NCBI GenBank assembly: GCA_024137785.1
Contig: JAHRHZ010000274.1
Location: forward strand, 17,784,871-17,848,870
Source: Ginglymostoma cirratum
Lineage: Eukaryota
Direction of reading: 5' to 3'
Length of the DNA: 64,000 nt
Part shown: positions 25,264 to 28,200 of the stretch, in pieces
Numbering within the stretch: position 1 is the stretch's first letter
How the letters are laid out: each line of letters starts with the position of its first letter
Made by a program: the position numbers and the translations under genes
The notes under the pieces: generated by a model
Seen by the model: only the letters and a program-made list of their open reading frames with translations
Databases searched by the model: none
Told to the model about the DNA's origin: nothing

Positions 25264-28200
25264 GTAGGGGGTTTTCTCCGCTTGGAATAACAGAAAAAAG
25301 ACAAACGCGAGGCGAGATTGGCTTCACTTTCTTTTACCCCTTTTTGTCTTTAAACTTCATTTCTCCAGATTATATCCCTGCGTTTATTGTACGTTGGGTG
25401 TAATAAGCCAAATATTCGCACACGAATGCGGTTGAGAAAGTGGTTTTCCGTCGACGGAGTCTTTAATTTCTATCCATTATATTGATTTAAATCTACGGCC
25501 GTTCTTCCCCCCCCCCCCCCCAAAGAAACGAAAGCTTGCCCCCGTCCCAAAAAATGGTATAATCTCCTCGATTAGTTATTTCTAATCACCAAGGAGCGTA
25601 ACCAAAAGTTAAATGGGTGGACGCGAAGTGTAAGGTTCGTAAAATGGCGACTGGTTTTTATTTGAGGGGAAAACAAGGCCGAGGGTTGATTTTTTTTTAA
25701 GGCTGTGGACAGATAAATTAAGAGGCTGGGAAATTCCCTGGGGGCTGTATCTGAGTCGACGTGGTGCCTCTGATGGTTGGAGACTGAGAATGCAACAGGA
25801 AGTGTGCACTTTCTCCCACAGCGCCTGTCCTTTGCTGCCAAATCATAGGAGGCCGACCAGGCTCTCTTAACTTCCACACTTTTCATGGCATTCTGCTGTC
25901 TTAGCACTACAGTGGCATTTGGGAGAAAAAGGAGGCTAGAACAGGAGTGGCTTTAATGCCATTTTGGTGATATTATGTGCTTCCACTTAAAATGATTTTT
26001 AATTTTGGATAATTGGGTAAAATTAACCAAATAAAATGCTAAGACATCTGACTGATCTATGAGTAAATTGGTTATTCTAACTTGATATTGGCATGGTAAT
26101 TTGGCTGTACATTGTAACCTTAAATGATTTTATGTTCTGTTGTTTAATACAGCATAATTGGGCATGGTGTAGAGTTTTTGCCTTTTTTTGGGTTGATCTG
26201 GTTCAAATCTATGCTGAATCTTAATGCTATGCATTGTTCTCCCTTGCTGAGAGAAAACAGCACCTGAGACTATACTTGAAGCAAAAAAGAATTGAAAGAT
26301 TGTCCAAATCAAACTTTATCTAGCTAATTGTAGTTGAGCTGCTTTGAGCTCAGACTTGAATTGATACTGGGTGTGGATAGTTTGTTAAAGAAACATGAAT
26401 TTCTAATTTGTCTGTTTCGAATCTAGATGGTGAAATTGCTCTAAATCCTATTTTGTTTCAGTCCCAGGCTGTCGTCCAATTGCTGTCGTAACCCTAGTCC
26501 GGGGCCTCTGTGGTGTTCCTGATGTCCCTCACCCACCCTTGAAGATCCCAGGTGGGCGAGGGAATGGTCAAAGGGATCACAATCTTGCAGCTAACATACT
26601 GTATTCAGTAAGTTTTGAGCTATTAAGTTGCAAAATTAGTAACTAAACTTTGAATTCTTCTTCGCACAGGAATCCATGCTGTAAGAATGTAATTAGGGGA
26701 AGTTGCTGCATGAGTAGGAATTTGAAAGTAGGGGATGGTTTTTTCTTGGTTTGCATTGAAATTGAGCTTGTGAAGTGCTCCTTGGCTTGGGTGTAATGGT
26801 AGCTTAAGTTAATGGAATAGATCAGTTGTCATTTCCAAGAAAGCAGAAGAAATTTGAAAGCTGGTAGGGGTTGTGACTTTTAACTTGTTCCTTGACTGCA
26901 GGTTAAGTAGAGGACGAGTGCAATGATGCTTATGTAGTAACTGCTTTTGCAAATTTAACAGTTGATCTGTGCTTGATTTGAAATGTTTACCAGCAATCCA
27001 GCCTCCTTAAAGAGCATGATAAAATATTAATCATCTCCTCCAGGATAATCGGCTGAGTGTAACAGAAGATTTGAGTGCAAATGGCAGGACTAAGATTCTC
27101 CACTTCCAGTCCAAGCTTACTGATGCAAGAGTTGCTCACTGGAGAGCAGTACTGAATAATAACAATCTGTACATTGAACTCCCAGGTGGGGTCTTGCCCG
27201 AAGGAAGCAAAGAAAGGTATGTGGTACTGCACATGATTAGCTTGGCAGATCATTCATGCATGAAATTTTATTGCTTAGTTTTTGCTTGGCCAAATGTTTT
27301 ATGGTTAAACATTGGGTGTAGAATAAATGGCTCTTTTACAATCCATTGACGTCATAATATGACTTTTAATATTTCTGATCACTCCTTAGAGCTGAAAGTA
27401 GGCCAAGCCATTGGTTTGTCAGTTTGTTTTATTCTGATTGTTGCACCACAAATCTGAATGGAACTGATGGAGTGCTGAGTTGAAATGCTGTTCTCAGACT
27501 TGACATCATAACTATACAAACCAGTGGGGTGTCGGTTAGCTCAGTTGGCTAGGCAGCTGGTTTGTGATGAGAATGATGCCAACAGTGTGGGTTCAGTTTT
27601 GGCACTGCAGAACTCTCCTTGGTCTCCCCCTTGCCTTAGTTCTGGTGGCCTCAAGTTAAGCCACCACCCAGTCGTGTGTCTGTAATGGGAGAGCACCCCT
27701 GTGATCCATTTGGATAATGGCAACTTTACCTTTTTATAAACCAGTGGATATTTTAAAGCTCAATTATGTAATATAACTGCTAATAGAACATAAAGTAATC
27801 CACACCTTTTCATGTTAATGAGCATTTCTTTATTGAAGAATAAATTCAGCATTGAATCCATTTTGTCTTTCAGTTTTGCCATCCTGCTTGAATTTGCAGA
27901 AGAACATCTTCAAGCTGAGCATGTGTTCATTTGCTTCCACAAGAACAGGGATGATCGAGGTAACTAAGCAGTGTTGATAACATCGATGGCCCTCAATGTA
28001 CATGTTTATATGGCAACCATTTCTGACTTATCCCCATAAGTAAACAGGCTGTCTAATTTGGGAATGTTATTCTAGTGTTGTCATGGCTCTCTCCTTCACT
28101 TATCTGGAATTCCAGACAGTTTCTTGTTTCCTCCTTGCACCTCTAACACTGTTTGCTTAATGTGGAGGTGAAGTTTTATCTCAAATCTTATTTACGAACA

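Follow-up and report, generated by a model that had tools for sequence, protein, structure and literature searches.

An intact ornithine decarboxylase antizyme 1 gene with a +1 frameshift site of the vertebrate type in Ginglymostoma cirratum

Introduction

The degradation of ornithine decarboxylase (ODC) that is directed by antizyme is independent of ubiquitin. Antizyme is described as an inhibitor of both ODC and polyamine uptake, and in mammals its UCC codon is decoded with UGA-U in the ribosomal A site, which leads to a +1 shift stimulated by a 5' element, a class I pseudoknot and polyamines (PMC1874602, PMC5009743, PMC11818727). The class I pseudoknot starts 3 nt past the stop, has a hinge of one base and lies within 60 nt (PMC1874602, section 10); it is reported there for antizyme 1 homologs of all vertebrates, “from fish to primates”, and additionally for lamprey. 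The first AUG of the upstream reading frame (ORF1) adds a mitochondrial signal in mammals (PMC1874602, PMC5009743), and two polyadenylation sites are described for antizyme 1 (PMC1874602, section 15).

For sharks, no antizyme paper was found by title or abstract start in our literature search. The words shark, skate, cartilaginous, elasmobranch and dogfish do not occur in the main text of PMC1874602, the supplements of which may hold shark sequences or TGT variants, and PMC2375905 makes no mention of shark, Squalus or Leucoraja. Orthologs from sharks and rays have been modelled in RefSeq (e.g., XP_043577117.1, XP_048415487.1, XP_041061054.1).

We analyzed a 64,000-nt stretch of the Ginglymostoma cirratum genome (contig JAHRHZ010000274.1, positions 17,784,871 to 17,848,870), referred to as the window, in which a preliminary description made from the letters alone had placed an intact antizyme frameshift site. 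The gene is the cartilaginous-fish ornithine decarboxylase antizyme 1 (OAZ1); it has five exons and is intact. The frameshift finding is real and was correctly interpreted, but it is already known and represents an ordinary trait common to all vertebrates. The locus is one more ortholog in a family of which about 300 cases were catalogued in 2007.

Results and Discussion

Gene Structure and Reading Frames

All elements of the gene are located on the forward strand, and in the spliced gene model all four introns have GT-AG borders. The coding part of exon 1 (25154-25263) contains three AUGs in frame, at 25154 (first), 25223 (codon 24) and 25232 (codon 27). Upstream of it, a TATA-like hexamer at 24980-24985 represents a putative, likely promoter element, the first AUG following 174 nt downstream. 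Exon 2 (26462-26607) carries the end of ORF1, the shift site, the pseudoknot and the beginning of the second reading frame (ORF2), which continues through exon 3 (27044-27216) and exon 4 (27874-27959, with the ODC-binding helix) to the TAA stop in exon 5 (coding part 31013-31143). Two AATAAA hexamers at 31325 and 31393 (31325-31398) are candidates for alternative polyadenylation signals.

When single exons were scanned with Pfam, exons 1, 2 and 3 each gave no match if taken alone; exon 4 matched ODC_AZ with 27.3 bits (cut-off 24.2) and exon 5 matched the same family with an E-value of 0.00033, a match that taken alone does not reach the cut-off. Exon 3 matched solved antizyme 1 chains (E 2.3e-18), and together with the Pfam match of exon 4 this places the ODC_AZ domain within ORF2.

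The spliced ORF1 comprises 56 codons and ends, just as had been noted beforehand, with TCC (26517-26519) and TGA (26520-26522), followed by a T. If one base is dropped at the ORF1 stop, an open product of 214 amino acids results, 158 codons of which belong to ORF2. Upstream of residue 202 the +1 frame lacks any Met, and since its sole Met is situated near the C-terminus, ORF2 is without a start of its own; the earlier statement that the antizyme core is found only in a start-less +1 frame was therefore right. All 17 OAZ1 models of full length that were examined from sharks and rays keep Met24 of ORF1.

Exon 2 contains two more AG sites (26468 and 26498) that preserve the ORF1 frame and could yield short splice variants. 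The ORF1 stop lies 85 nt 5' of the junction of exons 2 and 3. By the usual rule, an mRNA with a stop at this distance should enter nonsense-mediated decay if it is read without a shift; antizyme 1 mRNA, on the other hand, has been described as abundant. Within intron 3, a stretch at 27520-27730 resembles a tRNA-derived SINE by eye.

Assignment to OAZ1 and Comparison with Known Antizymes

With exon 2 read through the shift, 111 homologs were identified among 119 candidates, led by the 214-aa OAZ1 proteins of sharks and rays. The complete product shares 211 of 214 residues with the OAZ1 of each of two carpet sharks, Chiloscyllium and Stegostoma, 200 with Carcharodon and 158 with dog, so that the alignment to vertebrate OAZ1 that had been proposed as a check bears out the assignment. 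Identity to Carcharodon amounts to 50/56 in ORF1 and 150/158 in ORF2. The RefSeq models of sharks and rays are likewise 214 aa long with an ORF1 of 56 codons and are identical to the window product at 200-211 of 214 positions; the nearest two shark models differ from it by three substitutions, and none of the 20 records listed was identical to it.

In an ORF2 tree with midpoint root (152 columns; 28 rows hand-picked from about 140 proteins, including 17 OAZ1 and 8 OAZ2 and no OAZ3) the window sequence is placed inside OAZ1 among the sharks, with values of 100/99 for the split between OAZ1 and OAZ2. The OAZ2 of the same genome entered this tree as a shortened model covering 40% of the columns and not as the 213-aa one. 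Protein searches of the genome revealed two antizyme loci, of which the window contains the only one of the OAZ1 type. A search of the genome with Pfam PF02100 gave no match, the gene being split into exons and the controls being equally silent, and no neighboring gene suitable for synteny was recognized by Pfam in 148 of the 340 open stretches of the window.

The window gene agrees with vertebrate OAZ1 (PF02100; RF00381; PDB 5BWA, 4ZGY) in the UCC-UGA-U site, the class I geometry, the two overlapping reading frames and the presence of at least two in-frame AUGs within ORF1. It differs from the mammalian genes in the length of ORF1 (56 instead of 68 codons) and in the position of the second AUG, which is codon 24 here and codon 34 in dog; both states are common to other fishes.

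Shift Site and Predicted RNA Pseudoknot

The shift site TCC-TGA-T occupies positions 26517-26523 and is also found in the OAZ2 paralog of this genome. As the heptamer occurs 10 times in the window, it is uninformative by itself. It is followed by two stems, detected by enumerating helices and hence representing pairing potential predicted from the sequence. Stem 1 (26525-26537 with 26551-26563) comprises 13 positions with 12 Watson-Crick pairs and one mismatch and begins at the third base past the stop; stem 2 (26544-26549 with 26573-26578) consists of six Watson-Crick pairs, and the hinge between both stems is the single base 26550. In the start of stem 1, the one-base hinge, the presence of stem 2 and the span of approximately 60 nt, the predicted structure corresponds to the class I geometry. 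Both stems had been given with these dimensions in the preliminary description, and they hold up against chance: when the bases of the 62 nt were shuffled 3000 times, a helix like stem 1 appeared in 64 cases and the whole pseudoknot in none.

The Rfam family RF00381 (Antizyme_FSE), the model of which covers stem 1 only, matched at 26520-26578 over all of its 59 positions with 87.5 bits (cut-off 40, E 5.2e-19) and was the sole Rfam family matched in the whole window; the search of exon 2 with this model had likewise been suggested as a check, and the result supports the claim. The observation of the site together with its pseudoknot is correct and above chance.

The 5' stimulatory region, codons -8 to -2, extends over 26496-26516 and includes Pro-Gly-Pro at -7 to -5 and Leu-Trp-Cys at -4 to -2. 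Pro-Gly-Pro at these positions is also listed for vertebrate antizymes 1 and 2 (PMC5009743, Table 2).

Codons Upstream of the Shift Site

The codons preceding the stop are CTG TGG TGT TCC. They had been correctly read in the preliminary description, but were regarded as a local variant, and this part did not stand: other sharks and bony fishes share the variant, and the OAZ2 of this genome also has CTG at codon -4. In 72 homologs with an in-line junction, codon -4 encodes Leu in 57, Arg in 11 and Gln in four, the rows with Arg being tetrapods; Leu, which distinguishes the window from mammals with Arg, is the state common to other fishes. For codon -2 the third base was deduced from the +1-frame residue of mis-predicted homologs (n = 39), which implies TGC in 33 and TGT in six (two frogs, carp, bamboo shark and two unnamed). 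TGT separates the window from mammals with TGC, but is found in other fishes as well. Given Leu at -4 in 57/72 and an implied TGT in 6/39 homologs, the codon variant was rejected as a novelty.

With the consensus of the 5' element, UGG-UGC-UCC-UGA, the window agrees in 11 of 12 bases. The deviating codon -2 is TGC in the consensus (PMC11818727), and the conservation of the module containing it has been described as essentially complete (PMC1874602, section 11). Moreover, position -8 is Ser in place of Gly. These two deviations raise the question of a site which is functional but retuned, in which TGT or Ser at -8 would alter basal shifting or polyamine sensitivity, perhaps as an adjustment to cells rich in urea and TMAO. 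We consider such retuning unlikely, as TGT is also implied in frogs, carp and bamboo shark, position -8 is variable among vertebrates with G, P, A and V (PMC5009743, Table 2), and single-base changes in module A are reported to affect mammalian antizyme 1 only modestly (PMC4505036). A retuned site fits with the explanation preferred below, with the tuning as the only extra element.

Frame Offset in Other Vertebrates and Possible Splicing Bypass

An indel error in an assembly looks just like a single-base offset, and a TGA caused by one extra base, or a gene that has decayed to a pseudogene, had therefore to be weighed. The argument is a comparative one and not drawn from reads. We examined 42 database proteins that lack an in-line junction. 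In 39 of them the sequence ahead of the site follows the +1 frame of the window, including proteins of chimaera, coelacanth, bichir, frogs, birds and mammals and a model from a bamboo shark. Accordingly, the offset is present in many independent assemblies, at the same codon in these 39 proteins of other vertebrates, and it recurs in the paralog on another contig. Furthermore, ORF1 and ORF2 are both conserved, all introns have GT-AG borders and no second locus of the OAZ1 type was found in the genome. An assembly error or a pseudogene is hence extremely improbable, in line with the earlier assertion that the site is neither of the two.

The homologs also illustrate how easily the gene is mis-annotated, as had been predicted. 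Several models in the databases fuse the frames, and the label “LOW QUALITY PROTEIN”, which presumably marks models that NCBI corrected against the genome, was counted by hand in 65 of the 111 homologs; it is also carried by 17 of the 20 members listed for the two clusters of sharks and rays that are nearest to the window. The locus is of practical use as a positive control and as a warning that OAZ1 is broken by gene callers, which invent upstream exons or produce “low quality” corrected models. In annotations its TGA at 26520 should therefore be entered as a programmed shift site and should not be treated as a defect.

Full-length antizyme might also be produced without a frameshift if alternative splicing or RNA editing fused ORF1 to ORF2. 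Five GT dinucleotides in exon 1 would indeed open the frame when paired with the normal acceptor, and several database gene models fuse the frames in this manner; none of the five, however, has a donor consensus, and PMC1874602 (section 7) treats frame-fusing models as errors of annotation. Other routes fail as well: the normal donor combined with any of the 11 AG sites at 26300-26519 gave no open frame, skipping of exon 2 leads to a stop after 40 codons, and none of the eight GT sites of exon 2 situated before the stop works. In addition, the conservation of the ORF1 protein extends right to the stop. A shift is thus not easily made dispensable by splicing, and we regard a bypass of this kind as very improbable. 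Among the 20 sequencing runs listed as containing the stretch no RNA run appeared; nine contain at least half of its words, a figure that is not site-specific and is not counted as evidence.

Proposed Mechanism

It is very probable that the window harbors an intact shark OAZ1, the two frames of which are offset at TCC-TGA-T and likely joined by a polyamine-stimulated +1 frameshift as in mammals. Judging from mammalian work, ribosomes would pause at the weak UGA-U stop, and the 5' element and the pseudoknot would raise the share of peptidyl-tRNA-Ser that slips off UCC onto CCU, making GAU the next codon to be decoded. High polyamine levels should increase the shifted share, again by analogy with mammals. 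The resulting full-length antizyme would bind ODC monomers, block them and deliver them to the proteasome without ubiquitin, and the loss of ODC would lead to reduced polyamine synthesis. At low polyamine levels most ribosomes would be expected to stop and to set free a peptide of 56 aa, or of 33 or 30 aa if translation began at the later AUGs. The preliminary description had presented this mechanism as known, which is accurate: it is described for vertebrate antizyme 1 (PMC1874602), and shark orthologs were already modelled in RefSeq.

Residues for ODC Contact and Degradation

For residue numbering, the Carcharodon ortholog was aligned without gaps to chain B of PDB 5BWA. Eight residues of human antizyme 1 are important in the binding of ODC (PMC6995573), E142, K153, D154, E161, E164, E165, H171 and K178, and seven of them are identical in the window product; D154 is replaced by Glu, which is the state given for antizymes 2 and 3 (PMC6995573). 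Four residues have been tied to ODC degradation in the human protein (PMC6995573, section 3.3). S120 and G145 are kept, whereas N129H and G137N set the window product apart from human antizyme 1. As two of four degradation-linked residues are changed, the ODC-degrading activity of the shark antizyme may differ from that of the human one.

Two ODC-like loci are present in the genome (G000; L016-L019), on contig C51 near 10.0 Mb and on contig C111 near 30.2 Mb. They are likely, in either order, ODC1 and an antizyme inhibitor.

OAZ2 Paralog and N-terminal Leader

The second antizyme locus is an OAZ2 paralog with five exons and 213 aa on the minus strand (G000:C81:7485427-7500520, L013-L014). It shares 195 residues with the OAZ2 of Mustelus and 118 of 214 with the window OAZ1 product. 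Both antizymes of the genome have TCC-TGA-T, CTG at codon -4, the pseudoknot type and the lengths of exons 3 and 4 in common; OAZ2 differs in belonging to a separate clade and in a shorter loop between the stems.

An upstream exon of OAZ2 (C81, 7500520-7500423, minus strand; 98 nt) has a GT donor, is in frame with ORF1 and codes for a leader resembling that of OAZ1, matching the window OAZ1 at 11 of its first 20 positions; the second AUG of OAZ2, encoding Met, is codon 27. All four full-length in-line OAZ2 models of cartilaginous fishes (Mustelus, Heptranchias, Callorhinchus and Pristis) likewise have a leader similar to that of OAZ1 together with a second Met, while the two tetrapod OAZ2 models compared had unrelated N-termini and are probably mis-predicted. 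Mammalian OAZ2 begins at the second Met. Because shark OAZ2 also has two AUGs, multiple AUGs in ORF1 do not separate OAZ1 from OAZ2 here.

From these sequences it might tentatively be proposed, as a possibility about which we are rather doubtful, that both antizymes of cartilaginous fishes have kept an ancestral ORF1 with two starts, that the leader predates the duplication into OAZ1 and OAZ2, and that sharks make a mitochondria-directed antizyme 2. If true, a trait assigned in reviews to antizyme 1 only would extend to antizyme 2, and this side finding could show when the N-terminal leader of antizymes arose. A first AUG in antizyme 2 was not described in any of the 12 literature matches listed out of 181, the search being a weak one.

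Other Features of the Window

A run of 400 N extends over 37441-37840. An insertion of approximately 1.75 kb (32386-34149), 1 kb 3' of the OAZ1 gene, consists nearly entirely of a long inverted repeat with arms of 342, 130 and 107 nt that are 91-93% complementary, and a direct repeat of 13 nt is found on both flanks. At 33158-33772 a weak match to a GIY-YIG endonuclease was detected (Pfam E 0.00025, not reaching the cut-off). A scan of the window with NCBIfam gave two sub-threshold matches only, which were dismissed because they either are due to chance or lend support to no more than the GIY-YIG fragment. The insertion resembles a truncated retroelement of the Penelope-like family with a target-site duplication.
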